From the IMG/VR virus record IMGVR_UViG_3300009347_000008: DNA of 64,000 nt. The stretch is one strand, 5' to 3'. Positions 6,231-52,819 of the stretch are shown here, in pieces. The notes beneath the pieces were generated by a model. It was not told where the DNA came from, made no database searches, and saw only the letters and a list, made by a program, of their open reading frames with translations. Position numbers and translations under genes: made by a program. Origin of the DNA: a virus. How positions within the stretch are numbered: the first letter of the stretch is position 1; each line of letters begins with the position of its first letter.

Positions 6231-7132
6231 TAGAGTCCTACACTTTCTTCTTGCTTGCGGATACTCTCGCTGAGCTTGTCGATTCTGGATTGAACCATTT
6301 CGATTTCACGCTCAACACCGGGATCTGCTTGACCAGTATCTCGAATACTAACAAGGTTCATAAGACGCAATTCCAGATTGGACTTGAGTTCCTTATTTTC
6401 CTTATATTTATTACTCTGGTATTCTGCAACAATCAACCCAATATGATAGATTGGGTTCATTGCGAAGCCTTGCAGATTGTGAACACCGGTAGGGTCAATC
6501 TTCAGTGCTCCGAAAGTAGCCAATGCAGCTTCGGTATCCTCGTTAACCAGAACATCAGGCACCGCACGAACGGTCTTGATAAAGTCACGATTACCTTCAG
6601 TGAATGCTTTCAGAACACGACCAAAGAAACTCAGTCGACTACGCAGGTCGTTGATTTCACCCTTTGATAGTTGCTTAGCCAAATAACTCTGCTCGCCCGT
6701 AGTAGCTTCTGTCTCCAGGATGTAGAGATAGTTAAGCAAGCGCAGACTGTAGCGTGAACTGAAACTAATCAGCTCCAATGCCTTAATGAGAGATACCTTA
6801 TAGAGAGTAATGCCAGCAACAACGATTTCGTTTTCGAAATCTTTCTCAACCAAACTCTCAATACCGGAAGCAATCTTCTCCATCTGAAGCATACGGAACC
6901 AGATATCGGCCGCCATACCCTTGCTATTGGTTGCACCAACAGCACGGAAGTATTCTTTCTCAATGGCTTTGATTTCCTTAGAGACAACCTTATTGTTCAA
7001 AACATCCATTGCTTGTTTGTACGAAGGAATGGTCGAATTCTGAAGTTCTGTTCTAACAATGCGTGCGTCTTCAAGCAGTCGATCCTTTTTGAAATTAGGA
7101 AGCAGACTGGCGACATATTTTAAGATTTCCAT
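6230..7132 (-). CDS. Hypothetical protein (300 aa)
   Basis: ORF with translational coupling to the downstream gene. Confidence 0.6.
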   Translation of the reverse strand: MEILKYVASLLPNFKKDRLLEDARIVRTELQNSTIPSYKQAMDVLNNKVVSKEIKAIEKEYFRAVGATNSKGMAADIWFRMLQMEKIASGIESLVEKDFENEIVVAGITLYKVSLIKALELISFSSRYSLRLLNYLYILETEATTGEQSYLAKQLSKGEINDLRSRLSFFGRVLKAFTEGNRDFIKTVRAVPDVLVNEDTEAALATFGALKIDPTGVHNLQGFAMNPIYHIGLIVAEYQSNKYKENKELKSNLELRLMNLVSIRDTGQADPGVEREIEMVQSRIDKLSESIRKQEESVGL

Positions 7133-7163
7133 TTTAGATCCTTGACTATTAGATTATTTACTT

Positions 7164-8288
7164 TTAGAAGACTGGAGCATTACCGCCTTTGAATGCGGCG
7201 AGCACTTCCATGATATTGGGACCAGAGCCCTTATTGGCAACCTTGATATCTCTCAGGCCAACAGATGTACTGGTACTGATACCATAATGGTACATGTTAA
7301 CACGCTCATAGTTTCTATCGATAACTACAAGAATCATGGCATAGGTTTTATCAAAGATCTTTTGACGATCTTTGAAGTTATCCAAGTTAAGATTATGCTT
7401 AACTCTTAATTGCATTGCAGTTTCTTCAGAGATAACCACAATGTTGGAAGCTTCAGCTAAAGAGGGATTCTTAGAGAAGAAACTAGCAAGTTTACTGTTC
7501 TTAGCACGCTTTGCAATTTCGGAATACACTCCGTCTTTATCCGTCATAAGAGTACGCTTCTGCTCGCGGATCAAATCCTGACAGAAGACGAGATCTTTAA
7601 TAAAACTGATACGACCAGCACGCCACTTAAACCAACGTTCAGAGAACGACAGATCCACACTACCTTGTGAGAGCAACTGGACACAAGATGCAGGAGGCAA
7701 AGTGTTGACCATCAAACGGAACGAAATAGGGATAACAGCTTCTTGGCCATTATTCTTAATCGTAACATTGATGATCTTACCGATTGAGAGATTCGTCAGA
7801 TCGGCAACATTATCAACTTTAGCTAACTCTCCGTCTTTCTTGTCGTCTTTGGCTTCTAGAGCTACAGTAGGCAATTTATACTTCAGGGATTCAGAAGCAT
7901 AAGTCAGACTTTCTTTACCAATACCGGCATTTACAATGGTATTCAAGAAACCACTTGTGTCGACTTTTCTATTGGGATTGAGCTTATCCAGTACTCTGCC
8001 GACATTCACATCACCTACATTAGTGATAAGACTCAGAGCCTGTAACCAATATCCAACGAAAATGCTTTGAGTGGATTGAAGAATATCTGGAAGGTATTCT
8101 AAGAATAAACAATCCTTGTCGACAATTACAATAGGCTCAACACGGGCAACGGATGTAGCGCTAACAAGACTACTGGTTTTTAAATGTGAACCAACAGCTT
8201 GAGCCTTCGCGTACGTATCCATAACAGTAGATAGAACGCTACCTGCTGCCAGTGTGCCCTCATTCACGGGGCTTAAAAGAGTAGTCAT
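7164..8288 (-). CDS. Hypothetical protein (374 aa); the size and position in a structural-like block suggest a possible major virion protein, but this is unverified
   Basis: Long ORF with no recognisable enzymatic motif. Confidence 0.55.
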   Translation of the reverse strand: MTTLLSPVNEGTLAAGSVLSTVMDTYAKAQAVGSHLKTSSLVSATSVARVEPIVIVDKDCLFLEYLPDILQSTQSIFVGYWLQALSLITNVGDVNVGRVLDKLNPNRKVDTSGFLNTIVNAGIGKESLTYASESLKYKLPTVALEAKDDKKDGELAKVDNVADLTNLSIGKIINVTIKNNGQEAVIPISFRLMVNTLPPASCVQLLSQGSVDLSFSERWFKWRAGRISFIKDLVFCQDLIREQKRTLMTDKDGVYSEIAKRAKNSKLASFFSKNPSLAEASNIVVISEETAMQLRVKHNLNLDNFKDRQKIFDKTYAMILVVIDRNYERVNMYHYGISTSTSVGLRDIKVANKGSGPNIMEVLAAFKGGNAPVF

Positions 8289-25017: not shown

Positions 25018-26481
25018 ATGAAAGACTTTTTAAATTTGAAACAGGGTGAAGTTGGAATCGAATGTCGCTTCGCAACGTACGTCAAATCACCCCAACCCGA
25101 GTTGCCGGATTTACATCTTGTAAAAGAGCAAGTACATAAGGATGACGGTACAATTGTACCAACCGTAAAGCCTGTCTATAATTACGAACGACCTTATTGG
25201 ATTGTTAAAAAAGGTTGTCGTAATTTCAATCAGCCTAAAGAGTGGATTGAAAAAGAACGTGTCAATGAATTCTATTCGACACAAACAGACCTCCTATACA
25301 AGGCAGCATCGTCTCTAGGTAAACCATACTTTAAGAAGTCAATTAAAGACCTAGCAGCAGAGAGCCCGTATCTCTTTGGTATCGACATTAAGAGTACAGC
25401 AGTTATCAAGCAGGATTACATGGTTAAGTATCCTGATCTAAAGACTGAATATTCAGTAGGCGTGTTCGATACAGAAACTGATGTCATCCATGGGACTGAT
25501 GAAATTACCATGGCTACTTTTAGCTTTGGTAAGATTTGCTTCACAGCAGTACAGAAGAGTTTCTTCAAAGGTATTGCCAATCCAGAGCAAGAGGTTCTTG
25601 AAAAGACTAATAAGTATCTCGATCAATATATAACTAAGCGAGGTATCAAACCTGTATTAGTTATTGTGGACTCCGAGATCGATGTTCTAATTGAGACATT
25701 CAAAGTCATTCATGAAGCTAAGCCAGACTTTCTCTCTATCTGGAACATGAAGTTCGATATCGGTAAGATTCTAGAAGCTTGTGAACGTGCTAACTTCCCG
25801 ATTGAACATTTGATGTGTGATCCGTCTGTACCTAATGAGTACAGATCTTTCAAGTTTATTCTTGGCCCTAATCAAAAGAAGACTGCTAGTGGGTTGGTCA
25901 TGCCAATCAAACCAGCAGCGCAATGGCATACTGTCAAATGTCCTGCCTCCTTCTACGTGATCGACGCGATGTGTGCTTATAAACACACTCGTATGGGTGA
26001 ACAAGAAAAGAAGTCGTATAGCTTAGATTTCATTTTAGGTGAGGAGTTAAACTTAGGAAAGCTTAAGTTTGAAGAAGCCAATCATCTATCAGGTCTAGAT
26101 TGGCATAAATTTATGCAAGAGTTCTACCCTGTCGAATATGTAGTATATAACAGATTCGACTGTATTGGTATGGAACTACTTGAAGATAAAGTTAAAGACA
26201 TGCGAGTTGTGCTTCCGCAATTCTCTGGTTCTTCTGACTTTGAAGACTTTAAGTCTCAACCACGTCGTAAGATGGACGCTCTACATTGGTTCGTTCAGAA
26301 ACACGGCCGTGTAATGGGGTGTACTTCCTCAGCTTTGGTTGATGAAGAACTCGATCCAATGATCTTGGGGCGTGATGAATGGATTATTACTCTAGCTCCT
26401 TCACTTATTACGAGAGAAGGTCTACGAGTCATTGAGGAGAATCCAGAACAAGTTACAACGATCTATGGTCACGTTGGAGAT
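25018..26481 (+). CDS. Family-B DNA polymerase, exon 1: N-terminal domain plus 3'-5' exonuclease domain. The terminal stop codon of the ORF is probably intronic.
   Basis: Exo I-like FDTETD, Exo II-like WNMKFDIGKIL (NxxxFD) and Exo III-like YVVYNRFDCIGMELL (YxxxD). The ORF ends ~95 aa after Exo III, exactly where polymerase motif A is expected. Confidence 0.65.
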
Positions 26482-28166
26482 TAACTAAAGATACTGACAC
26501 GTCTATTATATGTTGTAGCTTATATAATAGGTTTAACGTGTTTACAAGAAAAGAACTTTACGTACCTTTTTCTGGAAGAAGATATATTATCACTAATACT
26601 GGTAAGATATTAGATTCTGAGAAGAAAGAAATTCCTGTTGAAATAATTGATAGGTCTATTTTTGTGGAAATTGATTGGTTACTTGGTAGGAGAAAATATC
26701 TCTTGTCTGTAATAGTAATGTTCACTTATGGATCTCTTAAAGTACCAGATCATCTACTAGACTTAGTAGAACCTCTTTACGTTGATGGTGATTTTAGAAA
26801 TTTAACACCCCAGAATCTTATCTATAGATTCAAAACCCCACTAGAAGTAGAAAACTATCCTGGTTTTTTCCTTATACCCTTTTATGTTAATTACGCTTTA
26901 AGTAAGAATGGCTCATTAATTAATATAGAAACTGGTAAGGAAAAACAATGGTCAGTAACATCAACTGAAAACAATAAAAAGAATCAAAAAGGTGGCTATT
27001 ACTTTAGCCGTGTACTTAATGATTTCGGTTTCAGTAAGTGTTTATTTCTACACAGAGCATTATGTTTAGTTTTCAAAGAGTACGATAACAAAGTCCAGTC
27101 ACTTGTGGTCAATCATAAGGATGGTAATCCATCTAATAACCACTTAGATAATATCGAATGGTCTACTTATAAAGAAAATAATAATCACGCTATTGCCATG
27201 GGTCTTAGATCAGATAATAAACCTATCTTATCGAAGAACATTAAAACTGGTGAGATCATGAAATTCTCCAGTATTAATGAATGTGGAAGGTATTACAATG
27301 CTCCTAGAGCAGGTTTTATCCAACATAGGTTGAAGAAATCTGGCAATAAAATATATTCGGATTATTTATTATTTAAGTATGACGACGGGACAGAGTGGCC
27401 ATCGATAGACCTTAATAAAGTCGAAATTATCCGAGGCGGCAGAAGTGACTTAATCAAAGCTAGAAATGTCTTTACTGGTGATGTTATTTTATTCTTAGGT
27501 GCTGAAAAAGGCTCTCACTTAACAGGTGTTAAAAAAGCTACTATTTTAAATCACGTAAAAAAAGGACACTTGATACCTTGTAAAGGTTGGAATTTTAAAT
27601 GGGACAACGACGAGACTCCGTGGCCTAACCACACACATCGTCATTTGAAAGTCTATGAAAAATTCCCAATCTTTCCTCCCACTGGTGCAATTATTTTTGA
27701 TACGGAATTAAACGAGGAGCTTTTCTTTGAGAGTGTAGCTTTAGCGTGTAATTTCTTAAATATCACTAAACATGTTTTTAGTGATTACGCTAAATCAAAA
27801 ACTTTATTAAAGAAAAGATATTCGCTTACGTATTTTCATCTTGTGAAAAGTCTAGGTCTCCCTACAGAGTAATCTGTAGTAAAAAACTATGTGAATTGAC
27901 TGGAACAAGCTTAGAGCCTCATACACTCCCTACTCCAGTAATGAGAGTAGTACAGTAAAAGAGATGAGGATTGTTTAACCAGCAGCCAAGCTTCCTGACC
28001 AACGACGTGAGTCGCCGTCAGGGTGAAGGTTCAGAGACTACATACCACAAGTGTGGTTAGCGCATAGCCCCATTATTCAATGGGTGAAGATATAGTCCGA
28101 TCTATAAGGAAACCTTATAGCGGGTGCCATAGCGTACCGGCTTAGTCTAACGAACTAAGTGGACAG
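26482..28166 (+). mobile_element. Group I intron (~1.7 kb) in the DNA polymerase gene, carrying an HNH endonuclease ORF; boundaries approximate
   Basis: Canonical P7 elements: R = GGTTCAGAGACTACA (28026-28040) and S = GAAGATATAGTCC (28088-28100), with the P7 pairing GACTA/TAGTC. A P9 hairpin TATAAGG-aaa-CCTTATA follows. The intron ends with G28166, directly before an in-frame exon whose first residues are KLDVSASYPN (polymerase motif A). Confidence 0.6.
26538..27872 (+). CDS. Intron-encoded HNH homing endonuclease (444 aa; GTG start)
   Basis: HNH core VVNHKDGNPSNNHLDNIEWSTYKENNNHA; located inside the group I intron. Confidence 0.7.
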   Translation: MFTRKELYVPFSGRRYIITNTGKILDSEKKEIPVEIIDRSIFVEIDWLLGRRKYLLSVIVMFTYGSLKVPDHLLDLVEPLYVDGDFRNLTPQNLIYRFKTPLEVENYPGFFLIPFYVNYALSKNGSLINIETGKEKQWSVTSTENNKKNQKGGYYFSRVLNDFGFSKCLFLHRALCLVFKEYDNKVQSLVVNHKDGNPSNNHLDNIEWSTYKENNNHAIAMGLRSDNKPILSKNIKTGEIMKFSSINECGRYYNAPRAGFIQHRLKKSGNKIYSDYLLFKYDDGTEWPSIDLNKVEIIRGGRSDLIKARNVFTGDVILFLGAEKGSHLTGVKKATILNHVKKGHLIPCKGWNFKWDNDETPWPNHTHRHLKVYEKFPIFPPTGAIIFDTELNEELFFESVALACNFLNITKHVFSDYAKSKTLLKKRYSLTYFHLVKSLGLPTE

Positions 28167-46125: not shown

Positions 46126-46305
46126 TCCTCACCGAAGTGAATGCAGTCTAGGAACCACCCTAAACCATGCTCTTTAGAGTCCAGTTTAGGTTCCCCCGTT
46201 GCCTGAAGCTGGTGGGTTAATCCGGTCAGTATGTAATTAGTAAATAATAGTATTACCTCTATAACTTAATGTTAAAGAGATGAATACTAGATAGTGTATA
46301 AGCGT

Positions 46306-46352
46306 CGCGTTAGGGGAGTTAACCCCTAACGATCCCGGCCTTCACGGGATTG
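46306..46352. terminator. Two tandem hairpins (CGTTAGGGG-agttaa-CCCCTAACG and ATCCCG-gccttca-CGGGAT) downstream of the GC-rich gene at 46367..46876
   Basis: Perfect inverted repeats on the 3' side of the minus-strand gene. Confidence 0.55.
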
Positions 46353-46366
46353 GACCTAGCGCACTT

Positions 46367-46876
46367 TTACTTGCGAGGAGCAGCCTTGGTAGCAGCGCGA
46401 GGAGTTGCCTTCTTCGCAGCAGCCACGGCTTGACCTTGTTCCTTGAATGCAGTCAGCACCTTCTCAGCATTGGCTTGCAGCCATTCGAGAGGAACACCAT
46501 GTTGCAGTTCACGAGAAACAGGAGCACCCAGCAGAACCATCAACGGGATGTAATCGCGGGTTTCAGCACCGTAAGCACGAGCCAGTGCAATGTTCTTTGC
46601 GCTCTCGCGAGCAGCAGCGATCACACGGTTCGCATTACGAATGGCTTCGAACTGAGCACGCAGTTCAGCATCGGCAACACTATTGATTGCCATGATTTCC
46701 TTGACAGCAGCGCGAGTTGCTTCCTTACGGTTAGCAGCCAGTTCTTCTTCCATGATAGCTTGGATCTCAGCATCATGAATCACGGGCAGACCGAATGCAG
46801 CCAGAGCTTCCTTTTCAGCAGTGGAAGCAGCCAGATCAGTCAGGGCATGGATGTTAACAGCGATGAGCTTGTTCAC
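46367..46876 (-). CDS. Ala-rich protein with a basic C-terminal tail (169 aa), strongly GC-rich; candidate abundant DNA-binding/virion protein
   Basis: Composition (A/E/K-rich, C-terminal AAAKKATPRAATKAAPRK) and GC content far above background. Confidence 0.6.
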   Translation of the reverse strand: MNKLIAVNIHALTDLAASTAEKEALAAFGLPVIHDAEIQAIMEEELAANRKEATRAAVKEIMAINSVADAELRAQFEAIRNANRVIAAARESAKNIALARAYGAETRDYIPLMVLLGAPVSRELQHGVPLEWLQANAEKVLTAFKEQGQAVAAAKKATPRAATKAAPRK

Positions 46877-47073
46877 TTTGATTTCCTTTGTAGAAAGTTT
46901 TGGTTTGTATCCGCATTGCGGACTGTTTACTTCAATATCTCTTTCATAGCTACCGCCACGTCCATTAGCTACTTAGCTACTAGTTTGTGGGAAATGCAAG
47001 AGATACTAAGTATTACCCCATTTGCTGGGTGTTGTAACATATTAGTAGTCTTTCAAGTTAAACTTTCATTTCT

Positions 47074-47739
47074 TCATTTGGTGTATCCGAAATGATCGAT
47101 CATTTGTTTCACAGTGACTCCATCACTGTAACCACATTTAACACTGTTGTATTGGGCAGCCACTTTATCTCTAATGTGGGCACCCTTACCATCAGATCTC
47201 ACGTAATAAAGATTCACGCCATCACAGAAAGAACCTACGATCTTACCAGGATGGTCTTGCAACGAGTTAGCTAGTTTGGCAACTTTGTAAACCAATTGGT
47301 CATATGTACCATTGTTTTCAATGATGACATCGAATTCATCTTTCGGGATATTGAAAGATGTAATTGGTTCCAAAGGAACACCTCGACCACTAGCATCAAC
47401 CCAAACCTTTAGATCATAGAGATGTTTAGATGCATTAAATTCTTCAAGATCACGCATCCCTACATAGATTTGGTGTTCCTGTAGAATCTCTCTAGACAGC
47501 CTTGCCTTGTCGGGAGTATTGTAGTTCCTGATAAGCTCATAGAGATAAGGTCTATGGAGACTTCTCTTCTCGTAACATTCGGCAAAGCTACTATATCCAG
47601 TATGTGCCATAATGACATCTTCTAGGACTTTCATAGCATATGCTGATGATGAACTAGCTTTATAATTGTTGAAATCACAAAGCAGATCAGCTACGGAATC
47701 TTTACCATGACGGCCATGTCCACATATAAGTAACTTCAT
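47074..47739 (-). CDS. Deoxynucleoside monophosphate kinase-like P-loop kinase (~221 aa from MKLLICGHG...)
   Basis: MKLLICGHGRHGKDSVADLL resembles the N-terminus of T4 gene 1 dNMP kinase, MKLIFLSGVKRSGKDTTADFI (recalled from memory). Confidence 0.5.
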   Translation of the reverse strand: MKLLICGHGRHGKDSVADLLCDFNNYKASSSSAYAMKVLEDVIMAHTGYSSFAECYEKRSLHRPYLYELIRNYNTPDKARLSREILQEHQIYVGMRDLEEFNASKHLYDLKVWVDASGRGVPLEPITSFNIPKDEFDVIIENNGTYDQLVYKVAKLANSLQDHPGKIVGSFCDGVNLYYVRSDGKGAHIRDKVAAQYNSVKCGYSDGVTVKQMIDHFGYTK

Positions 47740-47932
47740 GTGAAAACTTTCATTGCTAAAGATCAATTTATTCGAAATCACGGATCTTAGAAAAAACAAT
47801 ATCGATAGTCATTTTTCAGTCTCTTTGAAAAAATGATGGCATAAAGAGTGTTGGACTACCGCTACTCATCATTAGGTCTCTGGAGGGTGGAGGGAGGAGA
47901 GAGACCTAATAACTTTCACAATAGCCCAAACA

Positions 47933-48474
47933 TGGTGCCCCGAGCCGGAGTCGAACCGGCACGCTACTTAATTCGCAGGAGATTTTCTTACCACTATAGT
48001 TTTCACTACCAAACAACTTACCATACGTTAAAGGATCTTAGTTTGTTTGTGGTCTGGACTATGCCTTGATCATGCCCACGTCTGGGTTTAGATCGGAACC
48101 GTCTAGTCTCTACACTTTCCTAATCACTGATTAGGCTTAGCTCGGCGTTGTCATGTTAATATCCAGAGGGTTACTTCTAGTGTAACATAGGTAGCTGGCA
48201 CTACACACCCTATACCGGGATTATCCTATTAATTTAGAGTTCGCCGAATTTGATTCCATTCACCTAGTAACTCCGACTGACATATAGGTCTTTCTCCTAT
48301 ATTTAATGCGCTTATCGGATGGCGTCGATACAGATAACTGTTGTCGTTACTATTTTACCGTCTTTCGATTGACTGTTACGCCTATAATAGACTACCAATC
48401 ATTTTTTCGGTGGTGCTCAATATAGCTATCGCTATCTTAAAGTCTCCGGTGTCTACCAATTTCACCATCGGGGC
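47933..48474 (-). tRNA. tRNA-Leu(UAA): tRNA-Leu(UAA) split by a group I intron. Exon 1 is 48440..48474, the intron is 47987..48439, and exon 2 is 47933..47986 (CCA encoded).
   Basis: Exon 1 reads GCCCCGA-TG-GTG-AAATTGGTAGA-CAC-C-GGAGA-CUU. Exon 2 reads AAAA-TCTCC-(17-nt variable arm)-GCCGG-TTCGACT-CCGGC-TCGGGGC-A-CCA. The acceptor stem (GCCCCGA/TCGGGGC) and anticodon stem (GGAGA/TCTCC) pair perfectly. The anticodon is U34|A35A36, with the intron inserted exactly between U34 and A35. Confidence 0.8.
47987..48439 (-). ncRNA. ORF-less group I intron (453 nt) inside tRNA-Leu(UAA)
   Basis: Minus-strand P7 elements: R-like GTGTAGAGACTAGACGG (rc of 48100-48116) and S-like AAGGCATAGTCC (rc of 48053-48064), pairing GACTA/TAGTC. 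P8 is the hairpin CCCA-gacg-TGGG. P9 is the 8-bp stem CAAACAAC/GTTGTTTG. The 5' splice site follows U34 and the last intron nucleotide is G. No ORF of 60 aa or more lies inside. Confidence 0.75.
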
Positions 48475-48493
48475 TAATCTTTCCTACATCTTA

Positions 48494-49351
48494 TTACTTC
48501 GATGGAGTAAGATTTTGAAGATTTACAAAAGGTGTAGCTTCACCAACCACTTGAGGAAGAACACCATTCCATTTCTCAATTGCGAGTTGAGTCAGGACTT
48601 GAGGGTTAGCACGAAGAGCTTCACCACGGATACGGGCTGCTTCTGCTTCACCCTTAGCCAACGCAATAGCTTTGGCAGCATCTGCATTGGCTGCACGCAG
48701 TTCGTTTTCCTTTTGTTGTGCAATCTGTGTAGCAGCAATCTTGTTATTGATTGTCTTATACACAGCTTCAGGGAGTTTCATCTGTCCAACAAAGTAAACA
48801 CTTTCAATAGTGATACCTACTGCTTCTGCACGCTTACGGACATCATCTTCAACCTTTTTTTGCAGCTCAGCTTTACCTGCGCCATATGCATCTTCAACCG
48901 TAACTGAAGAAGCTGCAAGATTCAGAGAATCACGAATCATTGCACGCAGATATACTTGAGTAATCTCATCCACACCACGGCGGTATTTCTGAAAGACTGC
49001 TGGAGCATTCTCTGACTTGATGTAGTAGCTGATACCAAGATCAGTCTTTACAGACAGACCTTCAACTGTTTGGAAAGCAAACGATTCATCAGAGCGACCA
49101 TCTGCTTTGTCGTTGGTATTGTCATTACCACTAGACCAAACAAACGATTGGGTGAATGTTGGGAAAAGGAATAGATCCGTATTAGGACCAATCCAATAAC
49201 GCCCTGGACCAAGTACCGTAACGTTGACACCGCGTTCATCACCGTATTTGTCAATCTTCACACCAACATTGCCTGCTGGCACTGGACTACATCCGGTAGC
49301 GAAGATACCCATTGTAATAACAGCAACAATCATCCAAAGACGCTTAAACAT
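48494..49351 (-). CDS. SPFH/Band-7 (stomatin/HflC-like) lipoprotein (285 aa)
   Basis: Signal peptide with a Cys lipobox (MGIFATGC), followed by a conserved SPFH core and a long Ala/Glu-rich coiled-coil tail (AEAARIRGEALRANPQVLTQLAIEKW). Confidence 0.7.
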   Translation of the reverse strand: MFKRLWMIVAVITMGIFATGCSPVPAGNVGVKIDKYGDERGVNVTVLGPGRYWIGPNTDLFLFPTFTQSFVWSSGNDNTNDKADGRSDESFAFQTVEGLSVKTDLGISYYIKSENAPAVFQKYRRGVDEITQVYLRAMIRDSLNLAASSVTVEDAYGAGKAELQKKVEDDVRKRAEAVGITIESVYFVGQMKLPEAVYKTINNKIAATQIAQQKENELRAANADAAKAIALAKGEAEAARIRGEALRANPQVLTQLAIEKWNGVLPQVVGEATPFVNLQNLTPSK

Positions 49352-49565
49352 TTTCTTCTACCTCTTTTTTAGATTTGATAAAAAACAGTTTCTTAACCAC
49401 TGCAAAGACTATCCAAATGTAGAGGAACCACACGAGTGGAACCAATGCAAATGTGAATGTGCTGTTATAATTAACCAGCATTGGTGTAATGCTTCCGATC
49501 AAATAGACGGAAAACATCAGTAGTACTAAGAGTACAAAGGTTTTAAAGAATGTAAAATTCTTCAT
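49344..49565 (-). CDS. Small two-TM membrane protein (73 aa) overlapping the SPFH gene start; possible NfeD-like partner
   Basis: Two hydrophobic helices; its last 8 nt overlap the start of the downstream SPFH gene. Confidence 0.45.
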   Translation of the reverse strand: MKNFTFFKTFVLLVLLMFSVYLIGSITPMLVNYNSTFTFALVPLVWFLYIWIVFAVVKKLFFIKSKKEVEENV

Positions 49566-49774
49566 GATTCGTCTTCTTCCTTGTCCTTAAGGACTGCCAA
49601 TCGTTCACAGAAATCAATGGTGGTTGCTTCTGCTATCTCTTCGACAGATTGATTCTCAATCTCTTCGATTGTTTCGAGTCTACCGCAACGTCTCTCATCT
49701 TCCCAAGCTGCGAACAACTTATACAACTGAGCTTTAGTAGCCGTAATCGTTTCATTGGAATTTGAGATATGCAT
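49562..49774 (-). CDS. Small acidic protein (~70 aa from the internal Met)
   Basis: ORF; the track version (49562..49894) overlaps the macro-domain gene, so the start was moved to the internal Met. Confidence 0.35.
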   Translation of the reverse strand: MHISNSNETITATKAQLYKLFAAWEDERRCGRLETIEEIENQSVEEIAEATTIDFCERLAVLKDKEEDES

Positions 49775-49775
49775 A

Positions 49776-50285
49776 TTAGATACTACAAACGTAGATTTGA
49801 ATTGGATACTTCTGGGCAACGTCTTGTACCAATGGATACACTTCTGTATTCCAATCAAGGCCACCAAACCCACAACCGATCTTCGGCATTGCAATTGATT
49901 TAGGGAGAGACTCTGTGTATTGCACAGAATGAGCTAAATGCAGTAGTGCTGTATGAATACTAGTTTGATCAGCATATTTAGCACCGTCTTTACCGTAGAA
50001 GTTCTGGGTAAAGAGATTAGCAATGAAAGTATCTTTGTCTTTCACTATTTGGGAAAGACCAAGTAATTGATTAGCTCTATTTGGATCGCAGAAACGTCCG
50101 AAAATAAAAGACTCACCAGAATTACCTGTAAGGTACAGCCTCATGTACTCTTCATAAGCCTTTGGGTATTGCGCTCTTACCTGTTTGGCTACACCAGAAT
50201 TCATTTTACCTTGACAGTTAACACCATGAGCAATAACTGAGGTATTAGAGAAATCAAAAACAGACTGGCTTCGATATTCGATCAT
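49776..50285 (-). CDS. Macro-domain protein (ADP-ribose binding/processing; ~169 aa from MIEYRSQ...)
   Basis: VIAHGVNCQGKMNSGVAKQV (like the macro NAAN...GGGV segment) and PKIGCGFGG (like the GIGxxG segment). The track start 50327 would overlap tRNA-Met, so the start was moved. Confidence 0.65.
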   Translation of the reverse strand: MIEYRSQSVFDFSNTSVIAHGVNCQGKMNSGVAKQVRAQYPKAYEEYMRLYLTGNSGESFIFGRFCDPNRANQLLGLSQIVKDKDTFIANLFTQNFYGKDGAKYADQTSIHTALLHLAHSVQYTESLPKSIAMPKIGCGFGGLDWNTEVYPLVQDVAQKYPIQIYVCSI

Positions 50286-50299
50286 AATAAGAATCCTAG

Positions 50300-50374
50300 T
50301 GGTGGGAAAAGCGGGATTCGAACCCACGCCTTAACGATTATGAGTCGTCAGTACTACCGCTATACGATCTTCCC
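50300..50374 (-). tRNA. tRNA-Met(CAU): tRNA-Met or tRNA-Ile2 (anticodon CAU), CCA encoded
   Basis: GGGAAGA acceptor stem pairs with TTTTCCC; anticodon arm GACGA-CTCATAA-TCGTT; T arm GTGGG-TTCGAAT-CCCGC. The G1-C72 pair argues for an elongator type. Confidence 0.75.
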
Positions 50375-50383
50375 TTATTATTC

Positions 50384-50800
50384 TTATTGACTAGACATGT
50401 AACCCCACTGTCCGTTAAGAGCAGTAGCTGTTAATTTGAATTCATGTAGAGCAACTTCTGATGGAACATTATCACCAGTTAGAAACACCTCTATAAACAC
50501 TTTAGCGTGTTTATAATCACCTAATAAACGAGCTAAAAGATTGATACGTTTTTTATCCGATTCACTAACTGAATGGATATTAAATACGCCAAGACTTTTC
50601 ATGAAGAGTGTTATCTTCGAGTGGTAAGATTTATTGTAGTCCTTACCAATACTAATAATACTCTTACCATCTTCAGAAATACCTTCACTTACAGAGGTAT
50701 CTTTAAAGATATTGATATAAACAATTGGTTGTTTATTAGCAACGTTACGAAGTGAAAAATCACGTAATTCGTAATTGTTAGATTCATCAAAAAGTTTCAT
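50384..50800 (-). CDS. Hypothetical protein (138 aa)
   Basis: ORF between two tRNA genes. Confidence 0.5.
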   Translation of the reverse strand: MKLFDESNNYELRDFSLRNVANKQPIVYINIFKDTSVSEGISEDGKSIISIGKDYNKSYHSKITLFMKSLGVFNIHSVSESDKKRINLLARLLGDYKHAKVFIEVFLTGDNVPSEVALHEFKLTATALNGQWGYMSSQ

Positions 50801-50846
50801 TTCAAACTACTTTCTTTTCGATTAAGAAGAAAAAAAAATCCTCTTA

Positions 50847-50920
50847 GGGATAGCCACTATGGATCGAACCCAGAACCACAGGGGTCACATCCCTGCGCTC
50901 TACCATTGAACTAAGATGGA
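50847..50920 (-). tRNA. tRNA-His(GUG): tRNA-His(GUG)-like gene with a non-canonical acceptor region; possible pseudo-tRNA or a gene needing 5' repair
   Basis: D arm TA-GTTC-AATGGTA-GAGC and anticodon arm CAGGG-ATGTGAC-CCCTG are perfect. The T arm CTGGG-TTCGATC-CATAG has one G-A mismatch. The 3' strand reads TGGCTATCCC with no CCA. The 5' strand TCCATCT cannot pair with it. Confidence 0.45.
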
Positions 50921-50926
50921 ATGTAT

Positions 50927-51316
50927 TTATTCAACAATGACTCGTCCATGAGTCAAAGTAGTAACCTTATCTAATTTCTTCTCTTGCCAAGTTTCCATCC
51001 AAGGCCCACGGAAACTAATAGCCCAAGTTACTTCCTGCGCTACGATCTTGTGGAAACAATCTCTTGGTGTGAATTTAGGCTTAAGGCTAGGACGCCAAGG
51101 TAGTGGTGTTCTGTCATCAGCAAAGTACTCCATGACTCTACCCTTGATCCACCAAGTCCATGCATTGAAAGCATGGCTGTGAAATGCTTCACGACTACCT
51201 TTAGAGAATCTCAATATCACAATTGAGAAACCTAACTTCCATTCAATCAACCAATACCCAGTAACTCCTGAGTTTGGTCCACCATCGTGACTCTTTTTAA
51301 AGAGTTCGATTTTCAT
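50927..51316 (-). CDS. Hypothetical protein (129 aa)
   Basis: ORF. Confidence 0.5.
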   Translation of the reverse strand: MKIELFKKSHDGGPNSGVTGYWLIEWKLGFSIVILRFSKGSREAFHSHAFNAWTWWIKGRVMEYFADDRTPLPWRPSLKPKFTPRDCFHKIVAQEVTWAISFRGPWMETWQEKKLDKVTTLTHGRVIVE

Positions 51317-51368
51317 AGCTTACTCCTTAAAAAGAAAAAAAGAATACCGAAAGATATTCTTTTAGAAA

Positions 51369-51956
51369 TCACCAGTATTTCATTACTGTATTTCTGGAGA
51401 TTTTTAATTGATCTGCGATCTTGTAAACACTTAAACCTTGGCTCCTGAGAGCTTTGATTTGATTAATAATATCTTGACTCTTTGTTCGACCTACAGGAAA
51501 AGCTTCTGGATTTGTTTCTATTTGATATTTAGCTTTACATGAATTAGAACAGAAGATTAGTCCACTACCATTATTAGTATAATGTTTGTAGAACTTTTCA
51601 CCCATACTTCTTTCAGTTAAAGTAAAATCTTTACCACAATATGGACAAGCTAAATCAAATTTCTGCTGTACATTATTGATGTAATGTAAGCGTTGCTTCT
51701 CTCGATTTTGTTCAGGTGTTAGGATTTGAAGATTGTTAGGATCATCATTGGTTTTATTATTGTCAATGTGGTCTACTTCTTCTTGGTCAGTTAAGAAGCG
51801 ACCAAGCTTAACCGCCATTAAATATCTAGCCAATGTAGTTCCTGTTAGAGAACCATCAAATCTTTTTAATGTGACAGCTCTCCTGCCTTCATTATTCACA
51901 TAAACATAACCTGCCTGATACTCAGTATTAAAAGGATATTCTAAATCTATTTTCAT
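51369..51956 (-). CDS. Free-standing HNH endonuclease (195 aa) embedded in the tRNA cluster
   Basis: VDHIDNNKTNDDPNNLQILTPEQN (HNH_3-type) followed by a Cys cluster (CPYCG...CSNSC) and a C-terminal HTH-like segment. Confidence 0.65.
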   Translation of the reverse strand: MKIDLEYPFNTEYQAGYVYVNNEGRRAVTLKRFDGSLTGTTLARYLMAVKLGRFLTDQEEVDHIDNNKTNDDPNNLQILTPEQNREKQRLHYINNVQQKFDLACPYCGKDFTLTERSMGEKFYKHYTNNGSGLIFCSNSCKAKYQIETNPEAFPVGRTKSQDIINQIKALRSQGLSVYKIADQLKISRNTVMKYW

Positions 51957-51984
51957 AGCAACTCCATTAATTGTTCAGATTAAT

Positions 51985-52006
51985 GATATATTGCTGAAAT
52001 GATTTT
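51985..52006 (-). promoter_or_regulatory. Promoter-like box copy 4 (GATATATTGCTGAAATGATTTT)
   Basis: Conserved box immediately 3' of tRNA-Arg and ~30-50 nt upstream of the HNH gene start. Confidence 0.45.
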
Positions 52007-52015
52007 AGAAATAAA

Positions 52016-52090
52016 TGGTGGGCGATCCAAGAATCGAACTTGGAACTAAAACTTAGAAGGTTCTTGTTATTTCCATTTAACTAATCGCCC
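52016..52090 (-). tRNA. tRNA-Arg(UCU): tRNA-Arg(UCU), CCA encoded
   Basis: Acceptor GGGCGAT/ATCGCCC; D stem GTTA/TAAC; anticodon arm AGAAC-CTTCTAA-GTTTT; T arm CCAAG-TTCGATT-CTTGG. Confidence 0.8.
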
Positions 52091-52176
52091 TTGTCCTTTA
52101 CTCTAATCCAACTGAGTTACAGACGCTTTATCTTTAAGCTGTTGCTACTATTCGCTGAGCTATGGGCAGTTATGTT

Positions 52177-52464
52177 TCAATTCTTCGGTGGTTCAGGTTC
52201 ACCGAACTGTTCTAGACATCTAGCTGCTGGCTGACTCTTATCAGCAAAACATGCTGTAAATTCAGCACGAGCAGGTCCAGTAGGATCACCACATTTCTCC
52301 AAGATAGCACCAGCTTCAATGTACCATCCTGGTGATAACTCATTAGACTCTTTGACTGCTGTGTCTAGCAATTGACAAGTCTGATACGTAGTTTTGTATG
52401 GCACTACAGTACAACCACTAAGAAGTACTGCTGCTACTGCTAACGCAGTCTTTACATTTTTCAT
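52177..52464 (-). CDS. Small Cys-rich secreted lipoprotein (95 aa)
   Basis: Signal peptide with a classic lipobox (LLSGC) and six further Cys; GC above background; located between tRNA-Arg and tRNA-Ser. Confidence 0.55.
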   Translation of the reverse strand: MKNVKTALAVAAVLLSGCTVVPYKTTYQTCQLLDTAVKESNELSPGWYIEAGAILEKCGDPTGPARAEFTACFADKSQPAARCLEQFGEPEPPKN

Positions 52465-52478
52465 GTTTACTCCTTAAA

Positions 52479-52566
52479 TGGCGGAAGAAGTGAGATTCGA
52501 ACTCACGGATAGTCACCCATCGCCGGTTTTCAAGACCGGTCCATTAAACCACTCTGGCACTCTTCC
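52479..52566 (-). tRNA. tRNA-Ser(UGA): tRNA-Ser(UGA) with a long variable arm, CCA encoded
   Basis: Acceptor GGAAGAG/TTCTTCC; anticodon arm CCGGT-CTTGAAA-ACCGG; long variable arm; T arm GTGAG-TTCGAAT-CTCAC; 88 nt. Confidence 0.8.
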
Positions 52567-52819
52567 TATTTGATTAGACGGTTTATTCCAGTACATCACC
52601 GAAAGTTTCTTAACTATCTGGAACTTAGGCAGGTCAATATTAATTACAATCGTCAGACCTTTATGGCGTTCTACCAAGATAGAATTATTTTGCTGCTTTG
52701 TACCCAACATCGCAACAAACCCGCCTGCAATTGAGATTGTAATGTACAGCCGATCGTGTCAACTTTTGTACATAATAATAATTCTAACAATAAAAAATAC
52801 ATATTAAAGAAAAAAGAAA

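Follow-up and report, generated by a model that had tools for sequence, protein, structure and literature searches.

A macrodomain gene and an SPFH lipoprotein pair as independently varying occupants of a tRNA-flanked slot in a phiKZ-like jumbo phage

Introduction

Four closely packed genes on the minus strand of a viral DNA of 64,000 nucleotides (IMG/VR record IMGVR_UViG_3300009347_000008; this whole stretch is referred to as the window) raise the question of whether they constitute one functional module or are independent neighbours. They encode a macrodomain protein, a small acidic protein, a protein with two transmembrane (TM) segments and a lipoprotein of the SPFH/Band-7 family, and are lodged, with spacings of 1 nt or overlaps, between the genes of tRNA-Met(CAU) and an intron-split tRNA-Leu(UAA). 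A sequence-only reading of this DNA had described them as a membrane module, with an NfeD-type partner of the SPFH protein, adjoining a macrodomain of possible counter-defence function. In the current analysis the genes have been compared with their counterparts in related phages and with proteins of known structure and function.

The slot between the two tRNA genes is a hypervariable accessory region of a phiKZ-like jumbo phage and is comprised of three independently varying units, namely, the macrodomain gene, the acidic open reading frame (ORF) and the SPFH gene with its two-TM partner. The most satisfactory overall explanation combines a macrodomain enzyme that would act in an anti-DarT-like manner, a lineage-specific acidic ORF and an SPFH pair that would act on the envelope, all as separate units; taken jointly, we judge the chances of this combination to be about even. 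Neither the macrodomain gene nor the SPFH pair is unusual among phage accessory genes, and both belong to families that are already widely annotated. What is modestly new is that the two-TM partner can be defined as a family and that the macrodomain alleles are exchanged like cassettes.

Independent variation of the genes among close relatives

The window is assigned to the phiKZ-like phages since three of its proteins match the phiKZ internal head proteins (Pfam PF12699). A protein of 1054 residues also has counterparts among the virion proteins of jumbo phages that infect Burkholderia, Serratia, Xanthomonas, Erwinia and Pseudomonas. A megablast search with positions 47000-52000 against a phage collection of 50,697 records, which also serves for all the record counts given below, gave zero matches, and that region hence has no close relative in the collection. 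One relative, L064 (NZ_JAVWTF010000001.1, 259,245 bp), has been deposited within a metagenome-assembled genome of the actinobacterium Aurantimicrobium. It carries the same locus, with 96% identity in the SPFH protein and 98% in protein p221. From its size and content this contig would be a jumbo phage genome, possibly mis-binned.

The interval from tRNA-Met to tRNA-Leu has been compared in the relatives L049-L052, L058, L059, L060 and L064, in which the flanking genes are 82-99% identical. The window and L052 have the same arrangement, a macrodomain gene of allele A followed by the acidic ORF, the two-TM ORF and the SPFH gene. L064 and L059 encode the same four genes with a different macrodomain allele, termed B in L064 (56% identical) and C in L059 (47% identical). 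In L049-L051 allele B stands alone and is followed directly by an uninterrupted tRNA-Leu, and in L058 allele C and the acidic ORF are followed by tRNA-Leu. L060 retains a deletion remnant that lacks both the macrodomain gene and the SPFH pair. The three alleles share 41-56% mutual amino acid identity and have kept the catalytic motifs throughout, and the tRNA-Met genes of the relatives are only 68-71% identical. Judged from these alignments, the interval is a recombination hotspot.

That the macrodomain gene, the acidic ORF, the two-TM ORF and the SPFH gene could form a single operon or module, for instance for membrane-tethered ADP-ribose signalling or defence or as a phage toxin-antitoxin pair resembling DarTG, is suggested by their location on one strand with 1-nt spacing or overlaps and by the recurrence of the arrangement in L052, L059 and L064. 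Against this stand the macrodomain genes of L049-L051 that are devoid of the other three, the macrodomain gene and acidic ORF of L058 without an SPFH pair, the exchange of macrodomain alleles independently of the pair, and the SPFH pairs of other phages that have no macrodomain neighbour. Nor did a search of the window with one DarT2 query find a DarT, and the C-terminal domain of DarG is missing from the macrodomain protein. The single module has been rejected on synteny, because macrodomain allele, acidic ORF and SPFH pair vary independently in close relatives, and we consider it very improbable. The tight packing is explained by the nature of the slot as a hypervariable accessory region and not by a functional unit.

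An ALC1-like macrodomain with a glutamine-type active site

The protein encoded next to tRNA-Met has been assigned to the Pfam family Macro (PF01661; 31.8 bits, cutoff 22), and it matches phrog_335 (1e-33), which PHROGs annotates as 'phosphatase'. A profile built from 44 homologues and run against PDB gave BT1257 as the first match (3.6e-23), with DarG of Mycobacterium tuberculosis at 1e-21 and SCO6735 in fourth place at 2e-20. T. aquaticus DarG, Poa1p and TARG1 are among the further matches, and this class as a whole was matched at 1e-23 to 1e-14, whereas macrodomains of the viral nsP3 type and of macroH2A were reached at 1e-4 or weaker. The AlphaFold2 (AF2) model of the protein has a confidence score (pLDDT) of 92.4 and its top Foldseek matches, TARG1, BT1257, DarG, Poa1p and SCO6735, are all macrodomains. 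As the profile ranking and the Foldseek ranking agree, the protein belongs to the ALC1-like class (TARG1/DarG/SCO6735/Poa1p) and not to the MacroD, PARG or nsP3 type. The identification as a macrodomain in the sequence-only reading is thus confirmed by Pfam, profile and structural comparison.

The active site is made up of His20, Asn23, Gln94 and the loop G137-C-G-F-G-G142. Asn23, Gln94, Gly137 and Gly142 are invariant among the 44 homologues, and His20 and Gly141 are conserved in at least 90% of them. In the alignment these residues correspond to His24, Asn27, Gln85 and Gly128 of SCO6735. The catalytic lysine of DarG and TARG1 (Lys80 and Lys84, respectively, in an FPTK motif) is replaced by Gln94, in an FTQ motif; the homologues from FelixO1, PaP1 and GodonK are likewise of the glutamine type by alignment. 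A lysine, K99, is located in the mobile loop near the position of SCO6735 Lys89. The catalytic residues expected of a functional macrodomain are hence present, in the form of an SCO6735-type site with glutamine and not of the lysine site of DarG and TARG1.

The closest characterised counterparts are SCO6735 of Streptomyces coelicolor (PDB 5E3B) and BT1257 of Bacteroides thetaiotaomicron (PDB 2FG1). They have in common with the window protein the fold, the His and Asn residues, the Gln in place of Lys, a GCGxxGG loop and a stand-alone single-domain organisation, and in all three the loop following the Gln exceeds that of DarG in length. The sequence identity is about 20-24%. The window protein, which is encoded by a phage and whose activity is a prediction, has a mobile loop shorter by 1-2 residues.

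Homologues of the macrodomain protein are encoded in 870 of the phage records, among them those of FelixO1-like, PaP1-like and rV5-like phages and of other jumbo phages, and are mostly annotated as 'phosphatase' or 'macro domain'. Macro domains have been reported in 56% of jumbo phages in a survey (PMC9503650).

Proposed role of the macrodomain protein

The similarity to DarG raised the possibility, put forward in the sequence-only reading, that the macrodomain is the antitoxin half of a DarTG pair. The macro domain of DarG (PDB 5M3I and 5M31) is indeed homologous to the window protein (profile matches at 1e-21 and 4e-17), and PADLOC reports a DarG match of 5e-16. This match covers only positions 1-142 of 329, the macro part, and the NCBIfam DarG model (NF048014) yields 50.3 bits against an equivalog cutoff of 250. 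The C-terminal DarT-binding domain of DarG, its adjacent DarT and its catalytic Lys80 are features not found in the window protein, the neighbours of which are tRNA-Met and the acidic ORF. PADLOC and Pfam gave no DarT match among the flanking proteins. In a tblastn search of the whole window the DarT2 of P. aeruginosa obtained a best E-value of 1.6; this is a search with one query, from which very divergent DarTs could escape. The proposal of an antitoxin half has consequently been rejected for a macro-only protein with such neighbours and with DarT searches that came back empty. Two comparators have been dropped as well: AdfB of ICP1, an antitoxin encoded by gp145 that likely acts by direct interaction with DarT and for which no description as a macrodomain was found, and NARP3, in which no macrodomain is involved.

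By analogy with AdfM of PhiKZ, the protein is most likely an orphan ADP-ribosyl-glycohydrolase. It would bind ADP-ribose and hydrolyse the linkage between ADP-ribose and a base, and its most likely substrate would be the thymidine-linked ADP-ribose that host DarT2-type toxins place on single-stranded phage DNA. The protein would then serve, like AdfM, as an orphan antitoxin-like enzyme of counter-defence. SCO6735 removes thymidine-linked ADP-ribose from DNA, rescues cells from DarT and favours DNA over protein substrates; its activity is abolished by Q85A and nearly abolished by N27S, and Gly128 is important (PMC9411070). The PhiKZ protein (gp104), a macrodomain resembling DarG2, erases the marks of DarT2 and is needed on hosts with DarTG2, and about half of the chimalliviruses encode a macrodomain (PMC13309987). 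T4-like phages use an orphan NADAR in a like manner against DarTG1 (PMC11825919). The counter-defence role against ADP-ribosyltransferases that the sequence-only reading had considered accordingly has a published precedent, by analogy, in a phiKZ-like phage (PMC13309987). The occurrence of three divergent alleles, all with the catalytic motifs, between near-identical flanks also fits a gene engaged in an arms race.

AdfM and the window protein are both stand-alone ALC1-like macrodomains of phiKZ-like jumbo phages, with a conserved Asn (N23 in both) and a Gly-rich loop. Several points nevertheless weigh against a DNA-directed counter-defence enzyme. The identity to AdfM is 25%, and AdfM has the Lys (FPTK) where the window protein has the Gln (FTQ). 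Lys34 of SCO6735, important for the positioning of DNA, has Ser30 as its counterpart in the window protein, which makes the specificity for DNA uncertain. Poa1p, a phosphatase of ADP-ribose-1''-phosphate, belongs to the same fold class, and the homologues in PaP1 and in Rhizobium phage RHph_I1_18 adjoin a nicotinamide phosphoribosyltransferase (NAMPT), which hints at a role in metabolism. Lastly, a phage nucleus, if one is built, would require import of the enzyme.

Some of these points lead to the main alternative for this protein, an action on free ADP-ribose derivatives such as ADP-ribose-1''-phosphate or O-acetyl-ADP-ribose in place of DNA. The first of these would be its substrate as it is for yeast Poa1p following RNA repair of the Tpt1/KptA type, and the enzyme would feed or clean NAD+ and ADP-ribose metabolism during infection, for example beside a counter-defence based on NAD+ salvage. 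Poa1p (PDB 6LFQ/6LFU) is among the closest folds and profile matches, the label 'phosphatase' is given by PHROGs and in many phage records, NAMPT genes adjoin the two homologues mentioned, the gene is located in a tRNA island, and many phage Macro domains may prefer soluble ADP-ribose derivatives (PMC9503650). The nearest profile matches are BT1257/SCO6735 and DarG, however, and not Poa1p; the invariant Gln and Asn and the His are the residues that SCO6735 requires for hydrolysis of thymidine-linked ADP-ribose (PMC9411070); and the ORF list and Pfam show no NAMPT, Tpt1 or 2H gene adjoining the macrodomain gene in the window. On this balance an enzyme of free ADP-ribose derivatives is regarded as unlikely.

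A second alternative is that the protein reverses the ADP-ribosylation of uracil in RNA or of Asp/Glu in proteins, introduced by host toxins or by an ADP-ribosyltransferase of the phage itself. SCO6735 and TARG1 are able to hydrolyse uracil-linked ADP-ribose on single-stranded RNA (PMC13036486) and Glu/Asp-linked ADP-ribose on proteins (PMC9411070), and ADP-ribosyltransferases are frequent in jumbo phages (PMC9503650). The preference of SCO6735 for DNA, noted above, speaks against the protein variant, and Pfam and PADLOC identified no ADP-ribosyltransferase near the macrodomain gene. We know of no bacterial anti-phage system that employs reversible ADP-ribosylation of uracil. This alternative is considered decidedly improbable.

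If the macrodomain protein removes marks of the DarT type, the counter-defence by orphan antitoxins exemplified by AdfM and AdfN would extend to macrodomains of the glutamine type, which are far commoner in phages (FelixO1-like, PaP1-like, rV5-like and many jumbo phages). The swapping of alleles with 41-56% mutual identity in near-identical genomes would then represent a readable trace of selection.

The SPFH lipoprotein

The last gene of the slot encodes a protein with a Band_7 domain (PF01145; 83.7 bits against a cutoff of 23.6, 2e-23) at residues 24-220, and the protein matches phrog_200, 'lipoprotein', at 2e-79. Its N-terminus, MFKRLWMIVAVITMGIFATGC, includes a lipobox-like ATGC. The signal region, MFKRLWMIVAVITMGIFATG-C21, ends in a cysteine, Cys21, that is invariant in 42 homologues, with the consensus L-x-A-C-S-K-V-P-A-G. 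These features bear out the description as an SPFH/Band-7 lipoprotein in the sequence-only reading.

The signal and lipobox region is followed by the SPFH domain, a coiled-coil helix of about 55 residues and a C-terminal tail. The AF2 model (pLDDT 84) has an N-terminal hydrophobic helix, a beta-rich SPFH domain and helices at 195-248 and 250-260. The full-length model is matched in Foldseek by prohibitin, HflK/C, erlin, stomatin, flotillin and subunits of QmcA(-YbbJ) assemblies, and the nearest solved structures in the profile search are prohibitin-2 (9.5e-10), HflK (2e-4) and QmcA (4e-4), of which the last two are marginal. As modelled, the protein has the full architecture of the cage-forming members of the SPFH family. 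From the lipobox cysteine and the SPFH fold matches we infer a lipid-anchored scaffold facing the periplasm. The protein would build a ring or cage like that of prohibitin or HflK/C on the periplasmic face of the membrane.

Under the Lol sorting rule of E. coli an Asp at position +2 signals retention in the inner membrane. Several enterobacterial and Burkholderia representatives of the family have an Asp at +2 after the Cys. The +2 residue of the window protein is Ser, which does not assign the protein to the inner or the outer membrane and to that extent counts against the proposal.

The SPFH family is wide-spread in phages, with homologues in 647 of the records (about 1.3%) from more than 40 host genera and 1229 protein-cluster representatives at E<=1e-10. 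The closest homologues are found in Burkholderia phages (59-64% identity), and the N4-like protein shares 35%. The rarity in phages that the sequence-only reading had attributed to SPFH/NfeD pairs does not hold for this family, and the macrodomain, with the counts and the survey given earlier, is not rare either.

A two-TM partner distinct from NfeD

The ORF that overlaps the SPFH start encodes two TM segments joined by a short conserved loop, ITPMLVNYNST, and both termini are basic. The sequence-only reading had likened it to an NfeD-type partner. No Pfam match was found at E<=0.01, NfeD (PF01957) included, and the two TM segments within 73 residues leave only about 10 non-membrane residues at the C-terminus. 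The partner is not NfeD, because it lacks a Pfam match and has no room for the OB-fold of NfeD.

The association with the SPFH gene, which the sequence-only reading had also proposed, is genuine and conserved in many phages, both in the overlap and in the loop. The small ORFs in question extend 4-20 nt past the SPFH start and have a loop motif in common, P-x-[LM]-[VIM]-[SN]-x-x-[DNS]-[ST]; a partner with this motif has been identified in nine unrelated phage groups. It is encoded in Burkholderia phi1026b and Maja, Xanthomonas PB119, Pseudomonas Hali, the Enterobacter jumbo phage SonariX, the N4-like phage VEc25, an Stx2d phage and a P1-like phage, and a weaker version in a crAss-like phage. 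In tblastn the two-TM ORF of the window matches loci of the Burkholderia type at 1e-4. The motif is found in 37 of the 56 loci, comprising all 36 full-length loci of the Burkholderia type and L064.

Several direct homologues of the pair have been annotated previously, namely, phi1026b gp48/gp49, phiE125 gp43/gp44, BcepF1, Maja and VEc25 gp19/gp20; in BcepF1 and Maja the annotation reads 'HflC/HflK family inner membrane lipoprotein' and 'putative membrane protein'. The annotated homologues (e.g. phi1026b, Maja and VEc25) have the overlapping two-TM partner upstream as in the window. The pair in the window is located in the tRNA island of a jumbo phage, unlike the annotated ones. Among cellular systems, QmcA-YbbJ of E. 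coli (PDB 8Z5G) and HflK/C-FtsH resemble it in the cage architecture of an SPFH domain with coiled coil and in the coupling to a small membrane partner. The partner in the window belongs to a separate family of two-TM hairpins of 60-100 residues and its gene is located upstream, overlapping the SPFH start, in contrast to SPFH-NfeD operons with their OB-fold NfeD. The SPFH protein of the window is anchored by the lipobox Cys, whereas the QmcA and HflK/C systems have a TM helix.

The hairpin would sit in the inner membrane with both termini inside and a conserved periplasmic loop of about nine residues, as a client or anchor of the SPFH ring or cage. Most likely the pair would remodel or protect the envelope of the host in the course of infection or lysogeny, be it by the exclusion of other phages or by the modulation of a membrane protease. 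The genomic neighbours hint at an envelope or early function: a repressor gene in Hali, int/xis nearby in the Stx2d phage, a gene annotated as 'superinfection exclusion' in VEc25, and an endolysin gene that precedes the pair in Kayvirus.

Some observations count against such a general role of the pair. The ORFs upstream of SPFH genes differ among phages, being soluble in Erwinia M7-like phages and KpS8, of three TM segments in Ccr32 and of one TM segment (MbpV) in Staphylococcus Kayvirus. PADLOC gave no match for the SPFH protein or its two-TM partner, nor for the acidic ORF and the neighbouring proteins. The literature on the function of phage SPFH proteins consists only of annotations, 'moron', 'lipoprotein' (PMC5834331) and 'serine protease', and of a virulence study on PM0222. 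The latter is an HflK/C-like protein of a P. multocida prophage that occurs in outer-membrane vesicles and signals via TLR1/2 (PMC9872710); its likeness to the SPFH protein of the window is one of description and not of sequence comparison.

By analogy with HflK/C the pair might instead be a mimic that acts on a host membrane protease by modulating FtsH, or on the timing of lysis, and not in exclusion or envelope protection. The fold comparison has HflK/C among the nearest matches, with SPFH domains on the periplasmic side of the membrane. The pairs of temperate phages lie in early or lysogeny regions, beside the repressor gene of Hali and close to int/xis of an Stx2d phage, and the analogous mbpV-mbpS pair of Staphylococcus Kayvirus follows the endolysin gene. 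The pair is also encoded in strictly lytic phages, N4-like and jumbo, for which a lysogeny decision is irrelevant, and we take an HflK/C mimic to be quite unlikely in comparison with a pair that remodels or protects the envelope.

The recognition of the two-TM hairpin as the partner, in place of NfeD, defines a concrete two-protein unit in N4-like phages, Stx prophages and phi1026b. A bolder proposal, which we hold to be doubtful, is that the pair represents a hitherto undefined, NfeD-independent SPFH cage module engaged in conflict at the envelope and that the macrodomains of the glutamine type form a second, distinct orphan anti-DarT lineage, with exchange of their alleles. Such a module would be spread over jumbo, N4-like, Stx, P1-like, temperate Burkholderia and possibly crAss-like phages, and the pair might block the injection of competitor genomes or shield the inner membrane from pore-forming effectors of abortive infection. 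The macrodomain lineage would include FelixO1, PaP1 and the phage of the window, with alleles passed on as cassettes under the pressure of an arms race.

The acidic ORF

The acidic ORF is packed against both its neighbours and is translationally coupled to each of them. No match to it was found in Pfam, PHROG, NCBIfam or PADLOC, and its homologues number only 13, all at least 81% identical, so that the ORF appears to be confined to this phage lineage. It co-occurs with the macrodomain alleles A, B and C. A membership in the SPFH cassette has been rejected since L058 has the acidic ORF without the pair.

Organisation of the slot and of the tRNA island

The coordinates of the slot and of other features of the window are listed in Table 1. 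All four ORFs of the sequence-only reading are located as it had them, except that the acidic ORF, which had been placed upstream of the macrodomain gene, follows it downstream. The macrodomain ORF could be extended to a GTG start (to 50327). As this longer ORF would run into tRNA-Met, the ATG at 50285 is taken as the start. The acidic ORF starts 1 nt past the macrodomain stop and has an ATGA overlap with the two-TM ORF, and the two-TM ORF and the SPFH start overlap by 8 nt (GAAAATGTTTAA). In a scan of 47700-52700 promoter-like sites were less frequent than in shuffled sequence, and no terminator was convincing; the scan is uninformative on operon boundaries.

Table 1. Positions of the slot genes, their boundaries and other features of the window
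Feature	Position	Strand	Size	Basis	Remark
tRNA-Met(CAU)	50300-50374	-		ARAGORN; Rfam tRNA 61.5 bits	upstream boundary of the slot
Macrodomain gene	49776-50285	-	169 aa	Pfam Macro	
Acidic ORF	49562-49774	-	70 aa	sequence	isoelectric point 4.4
Two-TM ORF	49344-49565	-	73 aa	two hydrophobic segments	
SPFH/Band-7 lipoprotein gene	48494-49351	-	285 aa	Pfam Band_7	
tRNA-Leu(UAA) with group I intron	47933-48474; intron 48439-47987	-	intron 453 nt	exon alignment, Rfam	downstream boundary of the slot
Twister-sister ribozyme	46289-46367	-		RF02681, 41.9 bits (gathering 34)	
ORF next to twister-sister match	46367-46876		169 aa		
Partial tRNA-like match	50857-50913	-		28.8 bits (gathering 29)	model positions 8-63
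ORF similar to phrog_4786	50927-51316	-	129 aa	phrog_4786, 2e-17	'cysteine dioxygenase'-like
Homing-endonuclease-like ORF	51369-51956	-	195 aa	HNH_3 + HTH	
Second putative lipoprotein ORF	52177-52464	-	95 aa	signal peptide, lipobox	between tRNA-Ser and tRNA-Arg
DNA-polymerase fragment and HNH endonuclease ORF	25018-27872	+	HNH ORF 444 aa	phrog_3011	

The intron of tRNA-Leu(UAA) lies between U34 and A35 of the anticodon, and the exons could be aligned with the tRNA-Leu of L064, which has no intron. The Rfam Intron_gpI match, at 36.2 bits (E=1.7e-6), stays under the gathering score of 50, and the split tRNA-Leu escaped ARAGORN. The tRNA-Leu is uninterrupted in L064, L058 and L049 according to ARAGORN, and L059 appears to carry the intron.

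Upstream of the slot, the weak and partial tRNA-like match just below the gathering score is conserved in position, in nucleotides, in L058 and L064 and may be a degraded tRNA. The island also encodes the ORF similar to phrog_4786 and a homing-endonuclease-like ORF, the position of which relative to the tRNA and accessory genes varies among the relatives; the latter is 60-63% identical among them against more than 85% for its neighbours. A second putative lipoprotein of the island, with a signal peptide and the classic lipobox AVLLSGC, is encoded between tRNA-Ser and tRNA-Arg. The island of L049 additionally has genes for a Pfam 'Sequestin' protein (PF21825) and for Thg1, a tRNA-His guanylyltransferase (L049 positions 931-1404 and 6384-7175).

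Beyond the slot on its downstream side, the twister-sister match lies directly downstream of an ORF and occupies the same position in L049 (5188-5265). Elsewhere in the window a fragment of a DNA polymerase, which covers profile positions 10-494 of 576, is followed directly by an HNH endonuclease ORF; the polymerase gene may have been split or invaded by a mobile element.

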